A stretch of DNA of 32,000 bases from Candidatus Nanoarchaeia archaeon (GTDB lineage: Archaea > Nanobdellota > Nanobdellia > Woesearchaeales > JANQNC01): contig JANQNC010000001.1 of NCBI GenBank assembly GCA_028279745.1, forward strand, positions 1,200,001 through 1,232,000, read 5' to 3'. The position numbers and the translations under genes are program-made. The notes beneath the pieces are model-generated. The model saw only the letters and a program-made list of their open reading frames with translations, did not search any database and was not told the DNA's origin. Of this stretch, positions 2,832 through 32,000 are shown one piece after another; the first letter of the stretch is position 1; the number at the start of each line of letters is the position of its first letter.

Positions 2832-5800
2832 TTACCAGCCGAAAAGATTTTTCAGCCAGCTTCCATCTTTAGTTTCAGAGCCTTCCTTAACTCTAATAGC
2901 TATCTTTATTGTGTCATCCTCCTCAGGAGCGATCTCCTGGAATGTAGGAGGTTGGTTGACATCAATAACTGTAACTACAAAGCCTTCGGAGTCTTCAGCT
3001 AACCCGTCACTAACAGTAACAGTAACTAGGTGAGATCCAGCATCACTGTAACCTGCTTTCTTAGTGTCAGAAGACATGTAACCGTCAAACTTAATGGTTA
3101 ACTCATCACCATCTATATCTTCCACAACAGGTGTTACTGTGAACTCATCACCCTCATTAACTATAACTTCATCAATCTGCTCAATTGAAGGAGCATGATT
3201 AACGTTGTTAACAGTTATTGTTAGTTTTTGTTCAACTGTGTCGGTGCCATCATCTGCAGTTAGTGTTATAACGAATTCTTCAGAGTCAGAAGAACTGATA
3301 ATTCCAGTTTCTCTCTTGACTGCATCAAATCCAGGAGTCCATTCAAACTTAGAGTCTTCAAACTCTGCACCTTCAGGAATTCCTTCAACAGTCAATGTTA
3401 CTTCATCTTCATCTTCATCGCTAAGCACAACTTCAAACTCTACAGTTTGGCCCTCGTCCATTATTACATCGTCAATAGGTGCGATTATTGGTGCGTTATT
3501 AACATCCAATACAGTAAGTACGAAACTTCCTGTAACATTAAACTCATCATCTAATGCGCTAACAGTGATGTCATAAACACCTGCATCGTCTAAGGTGGTT
3601 TGCCATACTCCCTGATCGCTTAACGGTTCAGATATGTAATAGATAATCCTGTCACCATCTAAGTCTGCTTTTGGCAGATCAAGAGTAATGAACTCGCCCT
3701 CTTTAACAACTATATCAGATAGAGACAGTTCTGGAGCTCTGTTAGGTATTTCAACGTTCAATTGCCAACCTAGTGAAGCAGTTTCCTCACCATCTGATAC
3801 AATCACTTCAACTTGGTAAGTTCCTTCTTCATCTTCTTCAGAGTTGAAGATGTATGAATCATTTTCACCTACTTTTTCACCATTAAAAGCCCAGCTGTAA
3901 GATAGCGGGTCATCATCATTATCTGAAGCTTCTATGATGAATTCAACACTTTCACCTGCTAAGATGTTCAATGTTGATTCTTCTGGGGAGAAAGTTTCGA
4001 TAACTGGTGCGTTTAGGTTAACATTAGTAACTTCAATGTTAAAAGTGTCTGTAACTGTATCAACACCATCAGTAACTTCTACACTGATCTCATAAGTTCC
4101 TGCATCATCGTAGGAAGTTTTCCAAGTTCCATCATTACCAACTGGCTCAGAGATAGTGTATGATAACTCATCGTTGTCTTCGTCTGTTGCATCTAGTATT
4201 ATAGATACGACCTCTCCTTCACTAACTGAGATATCTTCCAGCTCGGTTAATGTTGGAGGTAGGTTGACATTTTCAACATTTAACTGCCAAACAACACTTG
4301 CAGTATTATTCTTAGTGTCTGAAACATCAACAGTAACAAAGTATTCACCTTCGCTGTCAGATGAAGTCAATACTGTCAAGTAATCTTTTGTACTTCCAAT
4401 CTGATCATTTAACTTCCATATGTAGCTCAATTCATCAAAGTCAGCATCAGAAGCGGTTATGTTGAAAGTTATGTTGGTGCCTTCTTTTACTGTGATGAAC
4501 TCTTCTTCTGGAAGGTATAAATCAATTACAGGCTTAGATTCAACTGAAACAACATTTATTGTGAAGTATTCTTCAATCATAACTTTGCTGTCCCTTGCAG
4601 AAACAGTCACAGGGAATTCTCCCACATTACCTTCTCCAGGAAGCCACTGACCCTTTTCATCTAAAGGTTCAGAGAACTTAATCTTCAGCTTATCTCCATC
4701 TGCATCACTGATTTCAGGAGTAAGATTGAATAACTCGTTTTCGCCGATCGTAATGTTGTTTATTGGAGTAATGTAAGGCGGTGCGTTCTGGTCAATTATC
4801 TTAACCATGAAATCTTGTGTAATCTCATTCTCACCATCGGATACCTTGAAAGTTATAGGGACTTGAGCTGAACAAGACCATAGCCACCAGTGCCAACAGC
4901 TCTTCTTAGGAACTGCATAGAACGAAGGGATCCAGTGGAAATCATTACCTTCAAAATAGTAATTGTCTAATCCTTCAACCTCAAAAGTCAAAGTGTCATT
5001 ATCTGGATCGAAAACACCCAAAGTAAGAACTAACTCTTCACCTTCCTTGATAACTGCTGCTTTAGCTGTTGTAGGCGTTTTAGGCTCTTCTTCTTCAATA
5101 GTTTCGATTATATCGTCTAATTCGTCAGATAGTTCGTCTTCAGACATTTCTAACTCTTCATCTTCTACAAGTGCAATATCTGTCACTTCTTCTTCTATTA
5201 TCTCTACTTCTTCATCACCTAAGATGTCTTCAACATCTAAGTCTTCGTCTACTATGATGATATCTTCCTCAACAACTGCTTCATCAGCTACTTCTTCAAC
5301 AGGAACATCATCTACGATCTCGTATTCTATCAGTTCCTCATCCTCTTCAGGGATAAAGTCTTCAATAGATTCAGTTTCGTTTACTTCTTCTACAATGGGT
5401 TCTTCATCCAGTAAACTTACTGTATCTTGTTTAGTATCAAATAATTTAAGTTTCAAAGTTTCAGAATCTTCTGAGATTCCATCGCTTACTGTGAAATCTA
5501 TCTTGAAAGTTTGTCTGCATCTCATAAGCCATCCATACCAACATCCATCAATTGTTTCGTAAGATGGAGCCCATCTGAATACGTTGTTTTCTATAGTTGC
5601 ACCTTCGGGTAGGTTAGTTGAAGAAAATTCTAACGGATCGTTATCTGCATCATAAGAGAATAACTCAATAGCTATCTCTTCTCCTTCATTGCTTTCAACA
5701 GGATCAATGGTGTAAAAAACTGGAGCTGTGTTTTCAACATCTTCTACTGGTTGAACAAGACTCATACCTCCATCTTCTAGTTCCTCAAGGTTGGCATCTT

Positions 5801-6017
5801 CAGTTGGTTCTTCTTCTGGAAGGTCAACAGGCTCTTCTGCTGTGTCTACAACCTCTTCCATAATAGGTTCTTCAATTGGAACTTCTTCAACCTCATCTGT
5901 TGTATTCTCTTCAACTGAAGGTTCAATCCAATTAATCTTAACAGACTGAGCTAAAGCTAAAGGTGCCATAAAGACACAAAGAATCAATAATATGCTAATT
6001 AGTTTATTTTTTACCAT
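2832..6017 (-). CDS. Giant acidic secreted adhesin-like protein with ~9 Ig/cadherin-like (He_PIG/cadherin-type) domains
   Basis: 1061 aa with a strong GAGGAGGGAG SD upstream. Signal peptide (ILLILCVFMAPLALAQS) and two long Asp/Glu-rich linkers. Nine ~85-100-aa modules each end in V-x-N-x-N-x-A-P and contain D-x-D-x-D-x-L and T/S-V-S/T-D-G motifs. No TM anchor at the C-terminus. Confidence 0.8.
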   Translation of the reverse strand: MVKNKLISILLILCVFMAPLALAQSVKINWIEPSVEENTTDEVEEVPIEEPIMEEVVDTAEEPVDLPEEEPTEDANLEELEDGGMSLVQPVEDVENTAPVFYTIDPVESNEGEEIAIELFSYDADNDPLEFSSTNLPEGATIENNVFRWAPSYETIDGCWYGWLMRCRQTFKIDFTVSDGISEDSETLKLKLFDTKQDTVSLLDEEPIVEEVNETESIEDFIPEEDEELIEYEIVDDVPVEEVADEAVVEEDIIIVDEDLDVEDILGDEEVEIIEEEVTDIALVEDEELEMSEDELSDELDDIIETIEEEEPKTPTTAKAAVIKEGEELVLTLGVFDPDNDTLTFEVEGLDNYYFEGNDFHWIPSFYAVPKKSCWHWWLWSCSAQVPITFKVSDGENEITQDFMVKIIDQNAPPYITPINNITIGENELFNLTPEISDADGDKLKIKFSEPLDEKGQWLPGEGNVGEFPVTVSARDSKVMIEEYFTINVVSVESKPVIDLYLPEEEFITVKEGTNITFNITASDADFDELSYIWKLNDQIGSTKDYLTVLTSSDSEGEYFVTVDVSDTKNNTASVVWQLNVENVNLPPTLTELEDISVSEGEVVSIILDATDEDNDELSYTISEPVGNDGTWKTSYDDAGTYEISVEVTDGVDTVTDTFNIEVTNVNLNAPVIETFSPEESTLNILAGESVEFIIEASDNDDDPLSYSWAFNGEKVGENDSYIFNSEEDEEGTYQVEVIVSDGEETASLGWQLNVEIPNRAPELSLSDIVVKEGEFITLDLPKADLDGDRIIYYISEPLSDQGVWQTTLDDAGVYDITVSALDDEFNVTGSFVLTVLDVNNAPIIAPIDDVIMDEGQTVEFEVVLSDEDEDEVTLTVEGIPEGAEFEDSKFEWTPGFDAVKRETGIISSSDSEEFVITLTADDGTDTVEQKLTITVNNVNHAPSIEQIDEVIVNEGDEFTVTPVVEDIDGDELTIKFDGYMSSDTKKAGYSDAGSHLVTVTVSDGLAEDSEGFVVTVIDVNQPPTFQEIAPEEDDTIKIAIRVKEGSETKDGSWLKNLFGW

Positions 6018-6153
6018 CTAAATCTCCCTCCTCACGTTTTGTGTTAGTATAATATAGTTATTTTATGGCTTTCCATATAAAAATATTTCTATTTTAGAAG
6101 AGTAATATGCTGTTGCTATTGTGGAATGACAATCTTGTTGAGGAAAAGTAAAA

Positions 6154-6262
6154 TGAGCCCGCCGTGACTTTCATGACTTTCGTCAATTTGAACACGGGAC
6201 CACTCGATCTCTGAACTTAGAGTTTATCAGTCGAGCACTCCACCAGACTAAGCTACGGGCTC
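6154..6262 (-). tRNA. tRNA-Ile (anticodon GAU) with two BHB introns (37/38 and 59/60)
   Basis: Minus-strand read: GAGCCCG TA GCTT AGTCTGGTG GAGT G CTCGA CTGATA [AACTCTAAGTTCAGAG] A TCGAG TGGTC CCGTG TTCAAA [TTGACGAAAGTCATGAAAG] T CACGG CGGGCTC A. Perfect 7-bp acceptor stem, TTCAAAT T-loop and A73 discriminator. Both introns (6209-6224 and 6168-6186) form helix-bulge-helix-bulge-helix motifs with 4-bp central helices. TATA-like CTTTATAAAATAA lies ~25-30 nt upstream and an oligo-T follows the 3' end. Confidence 0.85.
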
Positions 6263-6307
6263 AATTGATATATGAAAGTCAAGAATTATTTTATAAAGTT
6301 AATGTTT

Positions 6308-6634
6308 TTAGTCATGATTAAACTCAAAATCCCAAGAAGCATACCTAATTAAAAGGTCTGTCTCTTTAAGGTAAAGCATAAAATCACCTGAGCCAGGCAG
6401 AGTAAATTCTGTAGAAAATTCAGAACCATCTGGGAAAATTCTAATGCCTTGAATGCCATCGAACTCAGCCTCAGAAGGATTAGTAATTGAGTTAGTTATG
6501 TCTGTGTTAGTTGCCAAGTCAATCTCTGCAAATCTTTCAGCAGCAGTCTTTGCGCTAGAGTAAAGATTAAGCCTTTTGAAATGATCTTTTCCTTTGCTTA
6601 GCTGGTAGCTGTTGAATATTTTTACTGGGTCCAT
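6308..6634 (-). CDS. Hypothetical protein, paralog of the upstream overlapping gene
   Basis: 108 aa. The C-terminal half (GIRIFPDGSEFSTEF...FMLYLKETDLLIRY) aligns with GFRVLPDGVEYFFGF...YILYVKEKNLAVRF of ORF 6622..6969. Its ATG overlaps the upstream stop within ATGGACCCAGTAA. Confidence 0.6.
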   Translation of the reverse strand: MDPVKIFNSYQLSKGKDHFKRLNLYSSAKTAAERFAEIDLATNTDITNSITNPSEAEFDGIQGIRIFPDGSEFSTEFTLPGSGDFMLYLKETDLLIRYASWDFEFNHD

Positions 6635-6969
6635 TCTCTCACCGAGTGCTCTATGAATCTTACGGCAAGATTTTTCTCTTTGACATAAAGAATATAGTTG
6701 CCATATCTATTATCTCTCTTAGTGGTGATGCTTCCATGAAAGCCAAAAAAGTATTCAACGCCATCCGGAAGAACTCTAAAACCTATGTGATTTTTGAATA
6801 GTCCCGGTTCTGGATCAAGAACGCTGTCAGTTATCTCAACATTTGCTGAATTTTGTATCTCAATGCCTCTATCTTGTACTGTTTTAGTCTTGGAAGGATG
6901 TTGGTATTTTTTGAATTCTTCCTGCCATTTGTCTATCTGTTCAGGTGTTAAAGTCTCTGTAATATCCAT
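6622..6969 (-). CDS. Hypothetical protein, paralog of 6308..6634
   Basis: The ORF extends to 7008. The ATG at 6969 (MDITETL) sits ~25-30 nt downstream of a TATA-like TATTTTTATATTAG, so the shorter 115-aa form is preferred. Confidence 0.55.
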   Translation of the reverse strand: MDITETLTPEQIDKWQEEFKKYQHPSKTKTVQDRGIEIQNSANVEITDSVLDPEPGLFKNHIGFRVLPDGVEYFFGFHGSITTKRDNRYGNYILYVKEKNLAVRFIEHSVREWTQ

Positions 6970-11011: not shown

Positions 11012-11899
11012 TTAGGATGTCGTTTTTTCTTTTTTGATTCTCTTATTAGCAAGTTCACAATATTCCTTAGAGATATCATACCCTACAAATTTTCTGTTTA
11101 ATTTCATTGCGGCTATTGCGGTGGTTCCAACTCCCATAAAAGGATCTAAAACTAATTCATTTTTAAAAGTATATAATTGAATTAATCTTCTGGGTAATTC
11201 AATTGGGAATGGTGCAGGATGTTTAACTCTTTTTGCAGATTCAGTATTAAATTTCCATATACTTTTTGTAAGTTCTAAAAATTCATCTCTTGTAATTGTG
11301 TTAATTCTTTTGTTAGGATTATATCTTTTCATTGTATCTTTTGAAAAAATCATGATGTATTCGTGAGTGTCTCTCAGAGTAGGATTTGAAGCTGATTGCC
11401 AGCTTCCCCACGCACACGATCCCCCTGCACTTGCCCCCTTTTCCCATATGACTTCTCCTCTCATGATGAATCCTAAATCATGCATAATCCTAATAATTTC
11501 TGAATTGAGTGAGATATAAGGTTTTCTTCCAATATTGGCAATGTTTATTGCAACTCTCCCTCCAGGCACTAAAACTCTATGTGTTTCTTTAAATACACCT
11601 CTTAACATATTGAAATATTCTTCAAGGGAAAGATTGTTATCATAGTCTTTGCCAACATTATAAGGGGGAGAGGTAACTATCAGATGAACAGAACTGTCAG
11701 GCAGCTCGTTCATTTTTTCACTGGATTTACAAAATATTTTATTTAAGTTTTTTTGTGGAATCTTGTTTTCAATGTAATCAACTTTTTCTTTAGGTATGTT
11801 AATCTTTGAATATATTTTTTTATTATAAAATTCAGAAGAATCATGACTAAATCTCCCCGAACTTCCAAAACTTCTTGTCTTTGTCTTTTTTTTAATCAT
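11012..11899 (-). CDS. Beta-class DNA methyltransferase (N4-cytosine or N6-adenine), type II R-M modification subunit
   Basis: 295 aa. Catalytic motif IV TSPPY (HLIVTSPPYNVGKDYD) precedes the AdoMet motif I (VLDPFMGVGTTAIAA), which is the beta-class order. SPPY favours N4-cytosine specificity. Confidence 0.9.
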   Translation of the reverse strand: MIKKKTKTRSFGSSGRFSHDSSEFYNKKIYSKINIPKEKVDYIENKIPQKNLNKIFCKSSEKMNELPDSSVHLIVTSPPYNVGKDYDNNLSLEEYFNMLRGVFKETHRVLVPGGRVAINIANIGRKPYISLNSEIIRIMHDLGFIMRGEVIWEKGASAGGSCAWGSWQSASNPTLRDTHEYIMIFSKDTMKRYNPNKRINTITRDEFLELTKSIWKFNTESAKRVKHPAPFPIELPRRLIQLYTFKNELVLDPFMGVGTTAIAAMKLNRKFVGYDISKEYCELANKRIKKEKTTS

Positions 11900-12797: not shown

Positions 12798-12892
12798 TTT
12801 GAATGTTCTTGAGTATTTTAAGATTTAAAAACTTATCTAAAACCTATTTATAAAACGAAACATCTAAATATCTAGATCTGTTTTTGTGTCTT

Positions 12893-14329
12893 ATGTCGCT
12901 ACTAACAAAATCAAAGTATATGAATGGATTACAATGTCTTAGGTTATTGTGGTTTGCGAATAAGAAGCTTCTTCCTGAGATTGATTTGGCAACTGAACAT
13001 AAATTCTCACAAGGTCATGATTTTGAAGAATATGTAAAAAAACTGTTTCCTGAAGGTGTTGACCTAAAAGATCAAGAGTTCAAAGAAAACATAGACAACA
13101 CTAAAGAACAAATAGAAAATAAAAAAACAATCTTTGAAGCAGGTATTATTGTAGAAAACTATTTCATTAGAGCAGATATTCTAAAACCAAACGATGACGG
13201 TTGGGATTTATACGAAATAAAATCAACAACTCAAGTAAAACCTCAACATTTTCCGGATTTAGCTTTTCAAAAGTTTGTTTGTGAAAAAGCAGGCCTTAAG
13301 ATAAATAGGTGTTATCTCATACACTTAGATAATGAGTATGTTAAGAATGGAGAAATTGATCCAGAAAAACTTACTAAACAGGAAGATGTAACAAATGATG
13401 TGAATCAAGTTACTGATGTTGAGAAAAATGCGATTAAGTTCTTAGAAATCATGGATCAAGAACATCCTCCAGATCACTGCATATCAAAACAATGCAATAA
13501 ACCTTATGACTGTCCTTTAAAGAATGAGTGTTATATGGATCTTCCAAAATATAATGTATTACAGTTAACTAATTGGAGAGTTTATTGGAAACTATTAGAT
13601 GAAGGAATAGAAGATATCAAAGATATTCCGAAAGGCACTAAATTAACAGATAAAGATCAAATAATAATAGAATCTATTGAGAAAAATAAACCTATAATAT
13701 CCAAAGAACACATAAAACACTTTCTTAAGTCATTACACTACCCTTTATATCATTTTGATTTTGAAACTTTTGACACAGCAGTACCAATATTTGACAAATC
13801 AAGACCATATCAAAAAATACCTTTCCAATATTCTTTACATATAGAACAAGAAGATGGAACAGTAGAACATAAAGAATTTTTATCAGAAGGTGGAGATCCA
13901 AGACCTAAACTTCTTGAACAGATGAAAACTGATTTAGAAGGAACAGGAGATATTATTGTATTCAACAAATCATTTGAGATTTCAGTTATGAAAAAACTAG
14001 CAGAAGATTTTCCGGAACACTCAGACTGGTTATTGAAAGCAATAGATAGAATAGTTGATCTAGCAGATCCATTCAGAGCGTTTTATTATTATAACAAATC
14101 ACAAAAAGGATCTTATTCAATAAAGAAAGTACTACCTGCAATAACTGGTAAAAGCTATTCTGAGTTGGAGATTGATAACGGTGCAGAAGCAAGCATGCTT
14201 TATTTCTATAGCCATATAGTGCCTAAACTAGAGAATAAGGAAGAAATTCGGAGAAACCTTTTGAAATATTGTAATTTAGACACTGAAGGCATGGTTTGGA
14301 TTGTTGATGGGTTGAAGAAGTTGGTTTAG
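12893..14329 (+). CDS. DUF2779 protein (Cas4/RecB-like PD-(D/E)XK nuclease N-domain + DEDD-like exonuclease-fold C-domain)
   Basis: The ORF opens at 12884 (TTG) and the first ATG is at 12893. N-terminal SKYMNGLQCLRLLWF, the nuclease core ADILKP...WDLYEIKSTT and a Cys cluster (HCISKQCNKPYDCPLKNEC) fit a Cas4-like Fe-S nuclease. The later YHFDFETF...IPFQYSLH segment is the DUF2779 hallmark. Confidence 0.7.
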   Translation: MSLLTKSKYMNGLQCLRLLWFANKKLLPEIDLATEHKFSQGHDFEEYVKKLFPEGVDLKDQEFKENIDNTKEQIENKKTIFEAGIIVENYFIRADILKPNDDGWDLYEIKSTTQVKPQHFPDLAFQKFVCEKAGLKINRCYLIHLDNEYVKNGEIDPEKLTKQEDVTNDVNQVTDVEKNAIKFLEIMDQEHPPDHCISKQCNKPYDCPLKNECYMDLPKYNVLQLTNWRVYWKLLDEGIEDIKDIPKGTKLTDKDQIIIESIEKNKPIISKEHIKHFLKSLHYPLYHFDFETFDTAVPIFDKSRPYQKIPFQYSLHIEQEDGTVEHKEFLSEGGDPRPKLLEQMKTDLEGTGDIIVFNKSFEISVMKKLAEDFPEHSDWLLKAIDRIVDLADPFRAFYYYNKSQKGSYSIKKVLPAITGKSYSELEIDNGAEASMLYFYSHIVPKLENKEEIRRNLLKYCNLDTEGMVWIVDGLKKLV

Positions 14330-25155: not shown

Positions 25156-26781
25156 TTATTTTGCAAATCCTTTTCTATAGTTTGATAAGATTTTAGTTGG
25201 TGTCGGTTTCTCAACTCGTTCCCAATTTTCAGCTCTGCTTTGCAGATCTACATCAACTAGGTTTATCTCTTTCTTGTCCATGTCAATAACTATCTTATCT
25301 CCATCTTCAACAAGAGCAATAGGTCCTTTGTTGTATGCTTCTGGTTCGATATGTCCTATACATATTCCAGCAGTTCCGCCTGAAAATCTTCCATCAGTCA
25401 ATAAAGCAACTTCTTTGTCCATCTCCAGTCCTTTTATTGCAGATGTTGGGTAGAGCATCTCTCTCATTCCTGGACCGCCTGCTGGGCCTTCGTATCTTAT
25501 AATTACAACATCGCCTTTGACTACCTTTCCTGCTTTTATATATTCGGTTGCGTCAAGCTCATCTTCAAACACTCTTGCAGTGCCTTCAAATCTTGAAGAA
25601 ACTGCGGGATCAACTCCGCTTTCTTTGATAACCGAACCTTCAGGAGCTAAATTTCCTCTATAGACTGCAATGCCTCCTGAAGAAGAATGGGGTTTTTCAA
25701 CAGATTTGATAACATCTGTGTTTCCATTATCTTCAACATCGTTAATTCTTGATTCTAAAGATCCTGCAACAAGTTTAACATTAGGATTTAAGAGATCTCT
25801 TAACCTACTCATCACAACAGGAATTCCTCCAGCTCTATCAAAATCATTCATTCTGTATTCGCCTGCAGGAGAAAGCCTAAGAAGATTAGGTGTATTTTCA
25901 CTTATCTCATTTATCTTTTCCAAATCAAAGTCATATCCTGCTTCTTTTGCTATTGCTGGGACGTGTAGTACTGTGTTGGTTGATGCACCAATCGCCATAT
26001 CAACAACCAAAGCATTGTAAAATGCTTCTTCAGTAAGAATATCACTCACAGTAACGTTTGATCTAAGAAGTTCCATGATCCTTCTTCCTGTTTGTGTTGC
26101 TAATCTGTATTTTTTATTGTCAACAGCATGTGCTGTTGCCATACCTGGCAAGGTTAAACCTAAAGCTTCAGTTACACAAGCCATTGAGTTTGCAGTAAAT
26201 AATCCTGCACAACTTCCAACTGTGGGACAGCTTTCTTCCATAATCTTATCATATTTATTTTGATCAATTTTATCTAGTGCATATTGTGCGTCAGCCGCAA
26301 AAGCAGTGACAACATCGGCACCTTCTCCATCTACATTTCCTGGCAGCATAGGCCCTGCTGTTACAAAAATTCCAGGCATATCTTTTAGTGCAGCTGCAGC
26401 CATCAAATAACCAGGTATATTTTTATCACAAGCACCAATGTAAACAACTCCTTCAAAAAGACCGTGAGCTTTTATCATATCAACAACACTATCTCTGTTT
26501 AATTCTCTTGAAGGCAAACTGTATTTCATTCCATCATGCCCCATTGCAATACCATCACATACGCCTAAGCCAAGATTCATCTTAAATCCTGCACCTCCTG
26601 CTTCTGCAACGCCTCTTTGAACTGCACTTGCCAAATGATCAAGATGTACATGCCCTGGACATATTTCATTTTGAGAATAAACAATTGCCACTGAAGGTTT
26701 GTCTATTTGAGACTTATCTATTCCTGTACCATACAAGCAAGCTCTTGCTGCGGGTAATTTTTTAACTTGTTTTGCATCCAT
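25156..26781 (-). CDS. ilvD: Dihydroxy-acid dehydratase
   Basis: 541 aa. Motifs: CDGIAMGHDGMKYSL, GACDKNIPG, SCAGLFTANSM, LLTDGRFSGGT. A GAGGAGG SD lies ~8 nt upstream of the ATG. Confidence 0.95.
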   Translation of the reverse strand: MDAKQVKKLPAARACLYGTGIDKSQIDKPSVAIVYSQNEICPGHVHLDHLASAVQRGVAEAGGAGFKMNLGLGVCDGIAMGHDGMKYSLPSRELNRDSVVDMIKAHGLFEGVVYIGACDKNIPGYLMAAAALKDMPGIFVTAGPMLPGNVDGEGADVVTAFAADAQYALDKIDQNKYDKIMEESCPTVGSCAGLFTANSMACVTEALGLTLPGMATAHAVDNKKYRLATQTGRRIMELLRSNVTVSDILTEEAFYNALVVDMAIGASTNTVLHVPAIAKEAGYDFDLEKINEISENTPNLLRLSPAGEYRMNDFDRAGGIPVVMSRLRDLLNPNVKLVAGSLESRINDVEDNGNTDVIKSVEKPHSSSGGIAVYRGNLAPEGSVIKESGVDPAVSSRFEGTARVFEDELDATEYIKAGKVVKGDVVIIRYEGPAGGPGMREMLYPTSAIKGLEMDKEVALLTDGRFSGGTAGICIGHIEPEAYNKGPIALVEDGDKIVIDMDKKEINLVDVDLQSRAENWERVEKPTPTKILSNYRKGFAK

Positions 26782-27711: not shown

Positions 27712-29124
27712 ATGAAAGTGAATTTTGGCGGAGTAGAAGAAACAGTAGTCACAAGGGATGAATTTCCTTTAGACAAAGCGGTAGATGTTCTAAAAGATGA
27801 TGTTATTGCAGTATTGGGATATGGTTCACAAGGACCAGGACAATCTCAAAACTTAAGAGACAATGGATTTAATGTTATAGTTGGACAGAGAGAAGATTCA
27901 CCAACATGGCAAAAAGCAGTAGATGATGGATGGAAACCAGGAGAAACATTATTTCCGATCGTGGAAGCTGCAGAGAAAGGAACAATAGTTTCATATTTGT
28001 TATCAGATGCAGCACAACCAGTAGTGTGGCCAAGCATCAAAGAACATGTTAACGGAAAAACACTATACATATCACATGGATTTCCAGTACACTTCAAAGA
28101 TATCACAGGAGTTGTTCCATCTGAAGATACAGATGTAATAATGGTTGCACCAAAAGGTGCAGGACTTAGTGTAAGAAAAAATTTCTTGAACGGAAGCGGA
28201 ATAAATTCAAGTTTTGCAGTACACAAAGATGCATCAGGCAATGCTTTAGAAAATGTATTGGCAATGGGGATTGGGATAGGATCAGGTTATTTATTCGAAA
28301 CAACATGCGAAAGAGAAGTTGTTAGTGATCATGTAGGTGAAAGAGCAGTATTGCTAGGAGGAATATGGGCATTAGCGGAAGCAGCTTATGACAACTTAAG
28401 ATCCAAAGGTGTAACTCCAAACTCTTCTTTTATACTTTCTTCAGAACAAGCAACACAAGTAATCTTACCTTTGATAGGATTGGGCGGAACAAATGCAATC
28501 TACTCTCAAGCTGAGAAAGAGGGACACTTGGGAACTGTTTTGGCTTATCAGAATGCAGTTAGAGAAGCGACAACGCCAGTTATGCAAAAATTATACGCTG
28601 CATGTAAATTAGGAGAAGAAGCTAGGATAGCTCTAGAAGCTAATATCAAACCAGACTATAGAACAACACTTGATGCAGAGTTAGGTGCAATAGATGGTTC
28701 TGAGATGTGGACAACAGGGGTTAAAGTAAGAGAATCAGGTGAAGACCGAGCATATGACTCAGACATAACAAACTTTCCGTTAGCTGGAGCAATTTTAGGT
28801 GCAATGGAGGCACAATATCAAACTTTACTTGATAATGGACACAGCCCAAGCGAAGGAGGAAATGAAACTGTAGAAGAACTAACACAAAGTTTGAATCAGT
28901 TCTACCAATCAAATGGTGCAGCACACTTACTTAGAGTTTGCAGTACAACAGCTCAACGAGGAGCATTAGATTGGGGGCCTGAATTCAAGGACGCAATTTC
29001 TCCTGTATTTTATGGGGCACCAAAGTACAGTGGAGAAGCAAAAGTTGAATCAAACCAAACTGTAACAAAACCAAATATGTGGGATGTTATGGAAACTGTA
29101 AGAAAACTTAGACCTGGATTCTAA
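27712..29124 (+). CDS. ilvC: Ketol-acid reductoisomerase, long (class II-like) form
   Basis: 470 aa. Rossmann motif VLGYGSQGPGQSQNLRDNGFNV, then ISHGF, VMVAPKGAG, VSDHVGERAVLLGG and a second helical region with GNETVEELTQSL. The length and the GSQGPxQxQNLRD motif resemble plant and enterobacterial class II enzymes rather than the ~330-aa class I form. Confidence 0.9.
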   Translation: MKVNFGGVEETVVTRDEFPLDKAVDVLKDDVIAVLGYGSQGPGQSQNLRDNGFNVIVGQREDSPTWQKAVDDGWKPGETLFPIVEAAEKGTIVSYLLSDAAQPVVWPSIKEHVNGKTLYISHGFPVHFKDITGVVPSEDTDVIMVAPKGAGLSVRKNFLNGSGINSSFAVHKDASGNALENVLAMGIGIGSGYLFETTCEREVVSDHVGERAVLLGGIWALAEAAYDNLRSKGVTPNSSFILSSEQATQVILPLIGLGGTNAIYSQAEKEGHLGTVLAYQNAVREATTPVMQKLYAACKLGEEARIALEANIKPDYRTTLDAELGAIDGSEMWTTGVKVRESGEDRAYDSDITNFPLAGAILGAMEAQYQTLLDNGHSPSEGGNETVEELTQSLNQFYQSNGAAHLLRVCSTTAQRGALDWGPEFKDAISPVFYGAPKYSGEAKVESNQTVTKPNMWDVMETVRKLRPGF

Positions 29125-29145: not shown

Positions 29146-29511
29146 ATGGAGTCAATAAGAGAAGTAGTTAAAAACATACCTTATGAGAAAACTAACATAG
29201 GTAACGGCCAAGAGATTGGATTATTTCAAGTTGATTTTCCAAAAGGATGTCTTTCTTTAGCAAAACTTTATTCGGGAGAAACTTATGGTCCACACAAACA
29301 TACAATAGATGAACGAGTTACTATCTTAAGTGGTTCTGGAAGAATTATAATAGGGGATAGAGTGAGAGAATATTCTCCAGATAGTATATTCTACATACCA
29401 AAAGGAACACTGCATGTTTTTAAGACTAGAGAAACAACTTACATACAATCTATCCAAGAAGGGGCAGTAGTTGATACAGAGAGTGGTGAGTTGGATATTA
29501 AGAGTGATTGA
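29146..29511 (+). CDS. Cupin-domain protein (metal-binding cupin_2 type)
   Basis: 121 aa. Motif 1 is GPHKHTIDERVTILSG (H-x-H ... E). Motif 2 is IFYIPKGTLHVF (P-x-G-x2-H). Starts 21 nt after ilvC on the same strand. Confidence 0.7.
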   Translation: MESIREVVKNIPYEKTNIGNGQEIGLFQVDFPKGCLSLAKLYSGETYGPHKHTIDERVTILSGSGRIIIGDRVREYSPDSIFYIPKGTLHVFKTRETTYIQSIQEGAVVDTESGELDIKSD

Positions 29512-29514
29512 ATC

Positions 29515-30195
29515 TTAATTTAAGATTGCCAATGCCATTTTTTCTTTTGGTAATTTTTGATTTAGTTCTGGAAATATTTCAGCTTTTTGAATTTTGTCTA
29601 TCAAACGAACTGTGGAATCTACAAACGGGTAGATATACAAATCATAATGGACTCCATTGTAAACTGTGCCTGAATAGGCTAACGAAAACTCATCTAAAAT
29701 GTAATTACAAAGTGTAAGATAATCATCTTCACTAAATTTTCTATCTGTGACTGAAGTTTTTACAGTGTTTAAGACTTCATTTCTAAATTTAGTGTTATTC
29801 TTGAACTCATTATAAAGTAGATTTGTTGTACTATCGCAGAAAGGATCCTTTTGTTCATAGTCTTCCCATTGGATTATTGGAACGTTGCCCACAAAGTTTT
29901 CTAACTTGTTTTTTACTTTAATGCCATCCCTTAATACTTTTTTTCGATTGTACTTTTTTGAATTGTGGGTTCTAACATCATAATTTGTTACCTGAATCTT
30001 ATCCGCTATCAAAAGTAAAACTTTGTCTTTTGTATTCTCTAGTGCAAAAGTTAAATATTGTGATATGTTTTCTTCATTTATTGAGAAGTCCCGTTCCATG
30101 AAGAATCTATTTCCTAAACAAAGGGGGATAATAATGTTGTGTTTCTTTGCTTTGACGTTTTCTTTTGTAGTGTTAAAGTAGTTTTTTAGTTCCAT
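29515..30195 (-). CDS. Cyclodipeptide synthase (CDPS)-like protein with Cys at the catalytic Ser position
   Basis: 226 aa, the typical CDPS size. IIIPLCLGNRFF (aa 21-32) aligns with the CDPS pocket motif G-I-S-x-G-N-x-x-F and puts C26 where AlbC has S37. NYILDEF carries Y165-x3-E169 (AlbC Y178/E182). Y189-P190 lies exactly 20 residues after the Glu (AlbC Y202-H/P203). Leaderless spacing from the TATA-like TTCTTATAAATTTA. Confidence 0.55.
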   Translation of the reverse strand: MELKNYFNTTKENVKAKKHNIIIPLCLGNRFFMERDFSINEENISQYLTFALENTKDKVLLLIADKIQVTNYDVRTHNSKKYNRKKVLRDGIKVKNKLENFVGNVPIIQWEDYEQKDPFCDSTTNLLYNEFKNNTKFRNEVLNTVKTSVTDRKFSEDDYLTLCNYILDEFSLAYSGTVYNGVHYDLYIYPFVDSTVRLIDKIQKAEIFPELNQKLPKEKMALAILN

Positions 30196-30292
30196 CTCGT
30201 AATGATAACATCTAAATTTATAAGAATCTTTTTCCTATATTTTGCCACAGAATAAAAAGATTTATATATTATATTTTATAATAGATTAAATT

Positions 30293-31237
30293 ATGTATGA
30301 TTTAAAAGATAAAAAGATACTGGTGGAGCTGGATACGAACTGTAGACAGTCAAATACAAGCATTGCAAAAAAAGTATTGCTCTCAAAAGACGCGGTAGGA
30401 TATAGGATAAAACAGTTTGAGAAAAAGAAGGTGGTTGAGGGGTATAGAACACTAATCGATGTAAAAAGACTTGGATACACTCAGTACCGAGTCCTTTTCC
30501 AGCTAGTAAATGTTAACAAAGAAAAATTAGACAAACTAATACAAAGCCTAAAAGAAGAAAACATTGTCTGGGGAATAGCAATTAATGAAGGAGAATGGGA
30601 TTTGGCATTCACTTGTTTAACAAAAACAGATATAGAATTCAATGATTTCTACGAAAATTTAATGTCTTCTCACAGAACTATAATAAAAAATAGAGTAATT
30701 TCTCATATTCTAAAATATCATGAAGTAGGAAGGGGATATTTGGCTAATAAAAGGCAACAGGTGTTAAAACCTGCTATAAATTCTGAAACGGTTGAGATTG
30801 ATCGGATAGATCATCAGATTTTACAACTATTATCTGAAAATGCTAGAATGAAACTTGTAGATATGTCAAAAAGATTTGGTTTAAGCAGTATGTTAATCCA
30901 TCAAAGAATAAAAAAATTAGAGAAACAGAAGATTATAATTGGTTACAAAGCAAACATAAACGTTCTTAGGCTGGGAAGAGACTATTACGGAATAAAAATG
31001 AACTTAAACGATTACTCCGAGAAAGAACAAATACTAAACGAATTATACTCGCTAAAAGAAATGACTGCGGTTATTTACGCTCTTGGGGGTTATGATTTGG
31101 AGTTTGACCTAGAAGTGAAAGACACAAAAGAATTTCATGAAATAATTAACAACTTAAGAAATAAATTCTCCTCAATCAGAGAGATCAAATACATGCGAGC
31201 AATGGAATATTATAAACTGGCACACTTTCCTAAGTAA
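30293..31237 (+). CDS. Tandem (duplicated) Lrp/AsnC-fold protein
   Basis: 314 aa with two complete HTH+RAM units. Unit 1: DLKDKKILVELDTNCRQSNTSIAKKVLLSKDAVGYRIKQFEKKKVVEGYRTLIDVKRLGY. Unit 2: IDRIDHQILQLLSENARMKLVDMSKRFGLSSMLIHQRIKKLEKQKIIIGYKANINVLRLG. Transcribed divergently from the CDPS-like gene across a 97-nt intergenic region. Confidence 0.8.
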   Translation: MYDLKDKKILVELDTNCRQSNTSIAKKVLLSKDAVGYRIKQFEKKKVVEGYRTLIDVKRLGYTQYRVLFQLVNVNKEKLDKLIQSLKEENIVWGIAINEGEWDLAFTCLTKTDIEFNDFYENLMSSHRTIIKNRVISHILKYHEVGRGYLANKRQQVLKPAINSETVEIDRIDHQILQLLSENARMKLVDMSKRFGLSSMLIHQRIKKLEKQKIIIGYKANINVLRLGRDYYGIKMNLNDYSEKEQILNELYSLKEMTAVIYALGGYDLEFDLEVKDTKEFHEIINNLRNKFSSIREIKYMRAMEYYKLAHFPK

Positions 31238-31281
31238 CTAATTCCCAAATATTTTTAAATCATGATTGACTTATTCTAATT

Positions 31282-32000
31282 ATGTATGCTGATCAGATAA
31301 ACATATCATCAAAGTATCTAAATCATATAATGATGGGGCTATCCTTAACATCAGAGAAGTCTGCTACTTTAGTAGGTAATAAGATCCCAGACTTTATTGC
31401 GGGTATGGGTAAAAGAGGAGAGTTCAGGCAAAAACATGGGTTTGTTCCTACACTGATCATGTTTTCTCCAACAAATTGGTGTAATCTAAACTGTATTAAG
31501 TGTTATCCTGAAAGTTCAAAAGAAGAAAGCAAGATACTTCAATATTCAACAATAGACCAAGCGATACAAGAAGGAAAAGAAAAATGGGCAATGCCTTACT
31601 TCTCAATAAGTGGAGGCGAGCCAATAGATCATGCAATCGATATTGCAGAAAGACATCCTCAGGAACTCTTTCAAGTTTACACAAATGGGACATTAATAAC
31701 TAACGAAAAAGCAGAAAAAATTGCACAACTTGGAAACTTATTTCCGTTAATAAGCACTGAAGGAACAAAAGAAGAAACAGATAGAATAAGAGGAAGAGGA
31801 GTTTATGATAAAATAACAAGTGCAATGGATACCTTAACTGAACACAGTGTTGTTTGGGGAGTATCATTTACACTAACTTCAAGAAATGCAGATGTTTACG
31901 AAACAAACTTCTTATACGATATTATAGATAGGGGTGCAATGTTAGGAAGATTCCTAACATATATGCCAACGGGAAGAAACTCTGACTTTAGTAAAGTGCC
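31282..32000 (+). CDS. Radical SAM enzyme (5' partial, continues beyond window)
   Basis: Translated manually in the frame of nt 31282, with no stop codon before the window end, so it is absent from the ORF track. MYADQINISS...LIMFSPTNWCNLNCIKCY carries C67-x3-C71-x2-C74 (nt 31480-31503). Then FSISGGEP (SAM-binding GGE motif) and YTNGTLI. TATA-like AAATATTTTTAAAT lies ~27 nt upstream. Confidence 0.8.
   Translation, partial: MYADQINISSKYLNHIMMGLSLTSEKSATLVGNKIPDFIAGMGKRGEFRQKHGFVPTLIMFSPTNWCNLNCIKCYPESSKEESKILQYSTIDQAIQEGKEKWAMPYFSISGGEPIDHAIDIAERHPQELFQVYTNGTLITNEKAEKIAQLGNLFPLISTEGTKEETDRIRGRGVYDKITSAMDTLTEHSVVWGVSFTLTSRNADVYETNFLYDIIDRGAMLGRFLTYMPTGRNSDFSKV

Follow-up and report, generated by a model that had tools for sequence, protein, structure and literature searches.

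A cyclodipeptide synthase homologue with a natural cysteine in place of the nucleophilic serine, from a branch shared by DPANN archaea and CPR bacteria

In a 32,000-nt stretch of DNA from a Woesearchaeales archaeon (hereafter the window), the open reading frame at 29515..30195 on the minus strand encodes a genuine relative of the tRNA-dependent cyclodipeptide synthases (CDPSs) in which the nucleophilic serine is naturally replaced by cysteine. By analogy with characterised enzymes, we consider it probable that this gene is a functional member of an unannotated, monophyletic Ser-to-Cys branch of the family, with members among both DPANN archaea and CPR bacteria, and that it stands alone with a divergent tandem Lrp gene. 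In the literature, a Ser-bound acyl-enzyme is the defining feature of CDPSs, and that serine has served as a filter in surveys of the family. The gene and its neighbours are arranged as follows.

29146..29511, plus strand: Cupin_2 protein of 121 aa (Cupin_2 E = 2e-8; H-x-H...E...H metal motif)
29515..30195, minus strand: Cys-nucleophile CDPS homologue of 226 aa (key residues C26, D65, Y165, E169, Y189-P190)
30196..30292, no strand assigned: divergent intergenic region of 97 nt (two mirror-image TATA-like elements, inverted repeat)
30293..31237, plus strand: tandem (duplicated) Lrp/AsnC-family regulator of 314 aa (two HTH_AsnC-type stretches and AsnC_trans_reg)
31282..32000, plus strand, running past the window end: 5′ part of a radical SAM gene (Radical_SAM E = 7e-15; C-N-L-N-C-I-K-C)

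A phmmer search of PDB sequences with the 226-aa protein returned ParcuCDPS as the best match (E = 4.9e-17 for 7QAT and 4.4e-16 for 7QB8, residues 2-214), a likeness to CDPSs far beyond chance. When its AlphaFold (AF2) model, which has a pLDDT of 95.5, was submitted to Foldseek, PDB ranks 1-42 were all occupied by CDPSs, followed by TyrRS, with a best TM of 0.76. The modelled chain adopts the class-Ic aaRS-like Rossmann fold without the ATP motifs HIGH and KMSKS, and direct reading of the translation found neither string. The first-pass annotation had proposed a PF16715 search and a structural comparison as checks; the profile gave no match at E ≤ 1, but the fold search placed CDPSs first. The TIGR04539 score of the protein, 28.3 bits, also lies below the cutoff of 45, and its Cys-type relatives either reach 24-25.5 bits against PF16715 (threshold 27) or do not match it. 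Sequence, fold and catalytic residues together uphold the assignment to the CDPS family.

The landmarks P24-L-C26-L-G-N29, Y165-x3-E169 and Y189-P190 were all found where the first-pass annotation had placed them, with the spacings that it had given (165-26=139; 189-169=20). Cys26 aligns with the catalytic Ser of AlbC (S37), while Y165, E169 and Y189 are the aligned counterparts of AlbC Tyr178, Glu182 and Tyr202. The superposition as a whole (TM 0.76) and the register of the alignment suggest that these residues may line a single pocket. Both in the family alignment and among 150 library representatives, no variation was seen at D65, Y165, E169 or Y189 and hardly any at P190. As had been read earlier, codon 26 is the Cys codon TGT (ACA on the plus strand at 30118-30120). 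The codon is not a read error, since the window DNA agrees at 100% identity over 10,668 nt with L043 (Logan SRR20820740), which was assembled independently. The protein follows the XYP subfamily pattern (Y202-P203, position 40 being free to vary), with Y189-P190 and N29 at position 40. The combination of N40 with Y-P, previously taken for a mixture of subfamily hallmarks, is no anomaly: ParcuCDPS, itself of the XYP type, and nearly all of the CPR/DPANN branch carry N there.

In a neighbour-joining tree, the Cys-type CDPS homologues of about 25 lineages, distributed among DPANN archaea and CPR bacteria, grouped into a single monophyletic clade. Position 26 is Cys in 35 of the 36 clade members, which answers the question, raised in the first-pass annotation, of its conservation among relatives, and this Cys and the other catalytic residues are kept down to ~40% identity across two domains of life. 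Twelve clade-specific substitutions, located around the active site, go with the Cys, among them P24 in the P1 wall, F170 beside E169, Y174 and a second Cys at position 163; the chemistry or the product could therefore depart from those of canonical CDPSs. The closest CDPS relative of the 226-aa protein is P0002, with 60% identity. Members of the clade are annotated as 'hypothetical' because a published CDPS census discarded sequences without the catalytic Ser (PMC5816076) and because their scores fall below the Pfam and TIGRFAM thresholds. A literature search of limited coverage returned nothing relevant on a natural Cys CDPS or on any CDPS in DPANN archaea. Because CPR bacteria share the clade, it is not specifically archaeal, a point that the earlier annotation had not made, and its occurrence in both groups suggests that genes have passed between them.

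The conserved partner of the clade is a class I SAM methyltransferase, which is adjacent to, near or fused to the CDPS in 15 of 21 informative Cys lineages versus 0 of 45 Ser lineages. In most members it lies directly downstream of the Cys-CDPS gene or is fused to the C-terminus of its product. This partnership had been overlooked in the first-pass annotation. An apparent second CDPS paralogue located 3′ of the CDPS gene in relatives was rejected as a single-linkage artefact arising through CDPS-methyltransferase fusions, the genes in question being methyltransferases. The methyltransferase of the clade was not found in the window and the 10 kb past its end (42 kb in all), and the solo 226-aa enzyme may therefore give an incomplete product. 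A methyltransferase 7 kb off in the L043 extension was considered as the partner orthologue and rejected, as its similarity covers the SAM-binding motif alone. Pairs of CDPS and methyltransferase, and even fusions of the two, produce methylated diketopiperazines in actinomycetes (PMC2922099, PMC5767969), as in the Amir_4627/4628 and nocazine (Ndas_1145/1149) pathways and the Streptomyces CDPS-MTase fusions. The Cys clade resembles these pathways in having a class I SAM methyltransferase downstream or fused in most members, but it differs from them in its methyltransferase subfamilies and its DPANN/CPR hosts, and the window gene differs further in being without the partner.

The closest solved relative is ParcuCDPS from Parcubacteria bacterium RAAC4_OD1_1 (PDB 7QB8 and mutants; XYP; ~25% identity, TM 0.76), which produces cyclo(His-Pro) and cyclo(His-Glu). 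The two proteins are alike in length, fold, the L-G-N that follows the nucleophile and the CPR/DPANN type of their hosts, and ParcuCDPS D58, Y167, E171 and Y191-P192 correspond to D65, Y165, E169 and Y189-P190. In contrast, ParcuCDPS has Ser26 and G24 where the 226-aa protein has Cys26 and P24, and it scores above the family-model thresholds that the latter fails to reach. D58 is essential in ParcuCDPS and Y55, E174 and Y189 determine its His specificity (PMC7613923). L62, L172 and Y187 are the predicted P1 positions of the 226-aa protein. Because the His-selecting Y55 and E174 are replaced by Leu (L62 and L172), its first pocket probably accepts a hydrophobic residue.

The idea of a thioester-forming CDPS, put forward in the first-pass annotation, gains from the conservation of the Cys in relatives and from experimental precedent in Ser-to-Cys mutants. 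AlbC S37C retained partial activity, and MS/MS sequencing showed its C37 to carry Phe as a thioester (PMC3105412), so that the aminoacyl thioester has been shown directly for an AlbC variant, and S26C was the most active among the active-site mutants of ParcuCDPS (PMC7613923). Both share the Cys nucleophile of the 226-aa protein and still form cyclodipeptides; they are, however, laboratory point mutants of reduced activity, whereas the Cys clade is natural and carries about a dozen co-varying substitutions. By analogy with AlbC and ParcuCDPS, we infer thioester catalysis, a cyclodipeptide product and the substrate class of the 226-aa enzyme. A first aminoacyl-tRNA would give its aminoacyl group to Cys26 to form an aminoacyl thioester, with D65 positioned like D58 of ParcuCDPS and with Y165 and E169 assisting. 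A second aminoacyl-tRNA would then yield a dipeptidyl-enzyme, from which cyclisation aided by Y189 would release a 2,5-diketopiperazine.

The CDPS homologue is divergent from the duplicated Lrp/AsnC gene at a distance of 97 nt, as had been read from the sequence. In the 314-aa product, the HTH_AsnC-type domain was matched in two stretches (E = 1.4e-21) and AsnC_trans_reg at E = 5.5e-7. The NCBIfam AsnC/Lrp models likewise matched in two stretches, and the order characteristic of Lrp/AsnC regulators, an AsnC-type HTH followed by RAM/AsnC_trans_reg, is found here twice per chain. Prompted by weak NCBIfam matches, we considered whether the tandem Lrp and the radical SAM protein could be an AhbA/B siroheme decarboxylase and AhbC/D of the alternative haem pathway. 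This assignment was rejected, with AhbA at 24.7 bits versus a cutoff of 140 and the radical SAM protein at 42-60 bits versus cutoffs of 500-650 for AhbC, AhbD and NirJ; AsnC/Lrp regulator models far outscore siroheme decarboxylase models on the 314-aa protein.

The spacer between the two genes contains an inverted repeat with arms at 30219-30233 and 30254-30268 that are 87% complementary, with the conserved centre TTCTGTGGCAAAATA between them. About 20 nt 5′ of the CDPS homologue ATG, the AT-rich region carries the TATA-like element TTATAAAT, making the leaderless promoter proposed for this gene a plausible candidate. A sigma-70 promoter scan, the model of which is uninformative for an archaeon, gave nothing above shuffle expectation, and no match was returned when the window was scanned for Rfam families and tRNAs. 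A 61%-identical Lrp orthologue is divergent from and adjoins a Cys-CDPS gene in L005/L053, and the spacer is 82% identical to its L005 equivalent (75 of 92 aligned nt), compared with 67-70% for the flanking coding sequences. The proposed linkage to the Lrp gene is thus partly borne out: the divergent pair and the conserved spacer recur in one other Woesearchaeota lineage, but the arrangement is seen in two lineages in all. Judged from sequence, the spacer is a candidate bidirectional promoter and candidate Lrp operator, and the tandem Lrp probably regulates both the CDPS homologue gene and itself. The regulator's control of the CDPS gene would run through this conserved promoter region, which both genes share, and would plausibly follow the supply of amino acids.

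The remaining neighbours lie as the first-pass annotation had described them, the CDPS homologue being convergent with the Cupin_2 gene, with ends 3 nt apart, and the tandem Lrp gene being followed by a radical SAM gene, a truncated ORF from 31282 with the Radical_SAM domain (E = 7e-15) and CxxxCxxC. The full radical SAM gene and the genes downstream were read from L043, which was reached via the radical SAM protein; exact-sequence look-ups with the CDPS and Lrp proteins of the window matched no contig. The full-length protein has 352 aa with a start at 31333 and a weak SPASM/twitch-like C-terminus (SPASM 17.6 bits, threshold 21.5), and no NCBIfam equivalog reached its cutoff. Its gene overlaps by 10 nt a downstream gene of the squalene/phytoene-synthase family (SQS_PSY), located just outside the window and ~1.9 kb from the CDPS homologue.

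Taking the cupin and the radical SAM enzyme as tailoring partners and adding SQS_PSY, the CDPS, Lrp, radical SAM, cupin and SQS_PSY genes, contiguous within ~4 kb, could be regarded as one locus for a radical-SAM-modified and/or prenylated diketopiperazine. Prenylation of CDPS products has a precedent in DmtC1 and NozPT, phytoene-synthase-like prenyltransferases that tailor them in actinomycetes (PMC6173783, PMC10156859), both DxxxD motifs are present in the SQS_PSY protein, which at 46.6 bits passes the Pfam threshold, and in L002, another Cys-CDPS locus, a radical SAM gene directly follows a CDPS-CDPS-MTase block. We nonetheless find a single locus improbable. No cupin homologue occurs in 120+ related CDPS loci, and the cupin gene lies 21 nt downstream of ilvC (27712..29124), with which it shares a strand opposite to that of the CDPS homologue, so that it is more probably co-transcribed with ilvC than part of a CDPS unit. 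The L002 protein, the only radical SAM relative near any CDPS, is just 28% identical, whereas true orthologues (52-56% identity) occupy five unrelated contexts (DapB-like/peptidase M24, MTase/HigB, TsaD, ABC transporter and sugar-epimerase), none of them with a CDPS, Lrp or SQS_PSY gene nearby; we judge that the radical SAM enzyme is not a CDPS partner. The first-pass annotation had named orthologues without linkage as grounds against its proposal, and for both the cupin and the radical SAM gene such a lack of linkage is what was observed. No CDPS locus contains a homologue of SQS_PSY, and the family is widespread in Woesearchaeota, where an orthologue sits between SET and MutS genes. The likeness to the drimentine and nocardioazine clusters, which combine a CDPS with a phytoene-synthase-like prenyltransferase, lies in the nearby SQS_PSY gene; unlike in those clusters, its association with the CDPS is unconserved and it is coupled to the radical SAM gene. 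P0002 has none of these neighbours, and the co-localisation of tailoring genes across related genomes that marks a CDPS gene cluster was not found at the window locus. We therefore regard the cupin, radical SAM and SQS_PSY-like genes as neighbours of the CDPS homologue by position only.

Two further readings concern the enzyme itself. The clade-specific residues around its active site, the family-model scores under threshold and the methyltransferase coupling or fusion peculiar to Cys lineages would suit a protein that keeps the CDPS fold with altered chemistry and is not a strict CDPS, for example passing the aminoacyl group to another acceptor, releasing a linear dipeptide or making a product that needs methylation. 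This is unlikely in our view, since Y165, E169 and Y189-P190, which serve the second half-reaction and cyclisation, are all kept, engineered S-to-C enzymes still yield cyclodipeptides, and methyltransferases are known partners of actinomycete CDPSs. Nor does the gene look like a decaying relic from which both nucleophile and partner methyltransferase have gone in this lineage, although it stands solo in contrast to most of the clade, which retains the methyltransferase, and although P0013/L058 versus L004, a near-identical pair, differ by Cys versus Tyr at the nucleophile position, so that loss-of-function alleles may exist. With an intact reading frame, catalytic residues including the Cys conserved in two domains of life, a conserved upstream regulatory spacer and a high-confidence structure model, we consider such decay very improbable. 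A functional Cys-type CDPS standing alone beside its divergent tandem Lrp gene is the reading that we favour.

Beyond this reading, we advance a broader proposal tentatively and hold it to be doubtful as a whole, namely that the Ser-to-Cys switch marks a distinct enzyme class shared horizontally among ultra-small DPANN/CPR episymbionts, with a thioester intermediate, a reshaped first pocket and a methyltransferase that is either dedicated or fused. Its products might go beyond those of canonical CDPSs (for example diketopiperazines that are methylated or otherwise non-standard, or an aminoacyl group passed on to a new acceptor) and may serve host interaction; in the present genome it would be under an amino-acid-sensing tandem Lrp, possibly feeding the radical SAM/prenyl-synthase pair. 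To our knowledge, DPANN archaea and CPR bacteria are thought to possess almost no secondary metabolism, and the clade would extend CDPS-type secondary metabolism to both. A natural, conserved Cys clade would further mean that evolution has explored a thioester route so far known just from mutants, and it would provide ready-made enzymes in which to compare ester and thioester chemistry in aminoacyl-tRNA-dependent peptide synthesis.

The region from position 27712 to the window end contains five genes, listed below with the gene pair that continues beyond it in L043, an independent assembly of the same genome (Logan SRR20820740). In the 226-aa ORF, TGT stands at codon 26, and the residue positions and spacings given for this ORF in the first-pass annotation all proved correct.

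Genes of the region
27712..29124, + strand: ilvC
29146..29511, + strand: Cupin_2 protein of 121 aa (Pfam domain)
29515..30195, - strand: 226-aa ORF, the cyclodipeptide synthase (CDPS) homologue that is the subject of this analysis
30293..31237, + strand: 314-aa protein with an AsnC_trans_reg domain and two AsnC-type HTH stretches (Pfam domains)
31282.., + strand: radical SAM ORF with the motif C-N-L-N-C-I-K-C, running past the window end (Pfam domain and reading frame)
L043:10001-11841, ~0-1.2 kb past the window end: radical SAM and SQS_PSY-family gene pair, same genome

Other genes of the window code for a NosD/beta-helix protein (733-1824, -), a 1061-aa PKD/Big_9/cadherin-like surface protein (2832-6017, -), an N6/N4 DNA methylase (11012-11899, -) and a DUF2779 protein (12884-14329, +). 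Amino-acid biosynthesis is usually scant in DPANN-type genomes. The present genome, apparently a 1.3-Mb genome of this type, carries ilvD (window 25156-26781, -), a long form of ilvC (470 aa, two KARI_C stretches) and trpF (L043:13230-13880, -).

A Pfam search with the 226-aa protein alone returned no match to PF16715, the model proposed for checking it, and its TIGR04539 score was 28.3 bits against a cutoff of 45. The proposed assignment as a CDPS enzyme is nonetheless supported by two other comparisons. A phmmer search of PDB sequences matched seven entries of ParcuCDPS, the crystallized CDPS from Parcubacteria, over residues 2-214 (E = 4.9e-17 to 1e-15). An AlphaFold2 model built with 21 homologues (mean pLDDT 95.5, pTM 0.90) retrieved only CDPSs at ranks 1-42 of a Foldseek search against the PDB, in the order ParcuCDPS (TM 0.76), P. 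gingivalis, F. dumoffii, YvmC, BtCDPS, Nbra, Rv2275 and AlbC, followed by TyrRS structures. Pairwise alignment with ParcuCDPS places C26 at the nucleophile S26, D65 at the essential D58, Y165 and E169 at the catalytic Y167 and E171, and Y189-P190 at Y191-P192, which comprises the catalytic Tyr and the XYP hallmark. The combination of an Asn at the AlbC N40 position with Y-P, previously read as a mixture of subfamily hallmarks, is no anomaly, as ParcuCDPS, classed as XYP, and nearly the whole branch carry Asn there. Because the His-selecting residues of ParcuCDPS differ in the 226-aa protein (Y55, E174 and Y189 correspond to L62, L172 and Y187), its first substrate is predicted to be hydrophobic rather than His.

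The Ser-to-Cys replacement was likewise borne out, and with it the original observation on this ORF as a whole. L043 is 100% identical to the window across 10,668 nt. Among 20 homologues from a search of 5.8 billion proteins, the nucleophile position is Cys in 17, Ser in two and Tyr in one. Across 36 genome loci, close relatives (about 40-54% identity) carry P-I-C-L-G-N and all more distant ones G-I-S-L-G-N. Searching 1.84 billion representatives with a profile yielded 459 family members at E≤1e-3; the best 150 of these have Ser (126), Cys (10) or Asn (1) at this position or are truncated (13), with Cys proteins ranking highest. By neighbour-joining, the Cys sequences group into a single clade, sister to a small Ser group (L007, L010, P0018 and P0040), and share further clade-specific residues (P24, F31, T70, Y113, T124, S148, C163, F170, Y174, D193 and P216). 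Judging from these sequences, the Cys characterizes a clade and is no accident. D65, Y165, E169, Y189 and P190 remain conserved throughout the family (best 150 of 459), which argues for Cys-clade proteins being functional. Archaeal MAGs (Woesearchaeota, Nanoarchaeota) are mixed with bacterial MAGs (Paceibacterota, Saccharibacteria, Peribacteria) inside the clade, and this pattern implies that the gene has passed across the DPANN/CPR divide. Woesearchaeota MAGs supply the nearest relatives of the window's CDPS, Lrp and SQS_PSY genes, which makes the genome most probably that of a Woesearchaeota-type DPANN archaeon.

The second clade-specific Cys, C163 (codon at window 29707-29709), lies two residues ahead of the catalytic Y165 and is present in 33 of 36 Cys-clade sequences versus 6 of 54 Ser relatives. 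Two near-identical Cys-clade genes, L058:2086-2781 (P0013, representing 5 member sequences) and L004:1984-2685, differ at the nucleophile by a single TGT/TAT change (PIYVGN versus PICVGN); the Tyr version could be either a non-functional allele or an error that recurs.

The real partner of the Cys clade is a class I SAM methyltransferase, encoded within ~20 nt after the CDPS gene in L001, L003-L006, L009 and other loci. In L002 (2-2100) and L062 (3781-5982), two tandem Cys-CDPS genes precede one methyltransferase gene, and the two proteins are fused in L008, L012, P0035, P0037, P0038 and P0042. After near-identical loci were collapsed and at least 600 nt downstream required, the methyltransferase was adjacent or fused in 13 Cys lineages, within 1.5 kb in 2 and missing from 6, compared with 0 of 45 Ser lineages. 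The window's CDPS stands alone, with no homologue of this methyltransferase within the 32 kb and no orthologue in the 10 kb past the window end; its closest relatives (P0002, 60% identity; P0009; L048) are also solo. CDPS-methyltransferase pairs and fusions are known from actinomycetes (PMC2922099, PMC5767969), so the pairing repeats a known theme in a new lineage. In L060:3026-4357 the methyltransferase gene lies upstream of the CDPS gene, and in L065:6709-8437 a ~1.1 kb insertion interrupts the methyltransferase of the cassette.

Six library representatives of Ser-type CPR/DPANN CDPSs are also fusions (P0044, P0052, P0128, P0166, P0109 and P0126), three with a C-terminal SET (lysine-methyltransferase-fold) domain, one with an N-terminal phosphoribosyltransferase domain and two with unannotated N-terminal extensions of 200-470 residues. 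A class I Trp/Tyr-tRNA-synthetase-family gene lies ~1-9 kb from the CDPS gene in five loci (L005:11427-12536, L026:12581-13690, L035:9955-11079, L025:12963-13916 and L031:668-1879), more often than expected for one gene in about 1000; this could reflect substrate supply or synteny.

The first-pass annotation had also proposed a candidate cluster of the CDPS with the cupin, the tandem Lrp protein and the radical SAM enzyme, in which the radical SAM enzyme and/or the cupin could tailor the product. Comparison of gene neighbourhoods (36 loci from genomes, 80 from metagenomes and six additional contigs) points to the tandem Lrp as the sole supported link, seen in one further lineage: in the Woesearchaeota loci L005/L053, a tandem-Lrp gene (61% identity) once more lies next to the Cys-CDPS gene and is transcribed away from it. 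The CDPS/Lrp spacer, which contains mirror-image TATA-like arms, is 82% identical to that of L005 across 92 aligned nt, with a nearly identical core, compared with only 67-70% for the flanking coding sequences (49% and 61% for the encoded proteins).

Tailoring by the cupin and radical SAM enzyme found no such support. No cupin homologue occurs in any related CDPS locus compared; the cupin gene starts 21 nt past ilvC on the same strand and more probably belongs to the ilvC transcription unit than with the CDPS. The full radical SAM protein (352 aa, from L043) has a weakly SPASM-like C-terminus and scores below every NCBIfam equivalog cutoff. Its orthologues (52-56% identity) adjoin DapB-like/peptidase M24, methyltransferase/HigB, TsaD, ABC-transporter or sugar-epimerase genes, with no CDPS, tandem Lrp or SQS_PSY gene nearby, and among the loci compared, a radical SAM gene (28% identity) follows the CDPS block in L002 only. 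The 3' end of the radical SAM gene extends 10 nt into the SQS_PSY-family (squalene/phytoene-synthase) gene, whose 263-aa product has both DxxxD motifs. Since the CDPS products of actinomycetes can be tailored by phytoene-synthase-like prenyltransferases (PMC6173783, PMC10156859), this gene was a lead that merited a check. No SQS_PSY homologue was found in any CDPS locus compared, the family is widespread in Woesearchaeota, and in other Woesearchaeota the orthologues of the radical SAM and SQS_PSY genes were not seen coupled. One SQS_PSY orthologue is flanked by SET and MutS genes. In L134 (Woesearchaeota CG10; 5307-5642 and 6001-6810), a small SET-domain gene precedes the SQS_PSY orthologue, a detail mentioned here only for the occurrence of SET domains in Ser-type CDPS fusions.

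The literature searched yielded neither a natural catalytic Cys in CDPSs nor CDPSs in DPANN, and reports outside that search may exist; of Cys variants, recent reviews mention only the engineered S37C. AlbC S37C partly keeps its activity, and a phenylalanyl thioester on C37 was shown by MS/MS (PMC3105412). In ParcuCDPS, D58 is essential and S26C was the most active of the active-site mutants (PMC7613923). The finding is best described as a variant clade within the CDPS superfamily in which the nucleophile is naturally Cys; the clade is unannotated, appears undescribed in the literature searched, and has direct mutational precedent for its mechanism.
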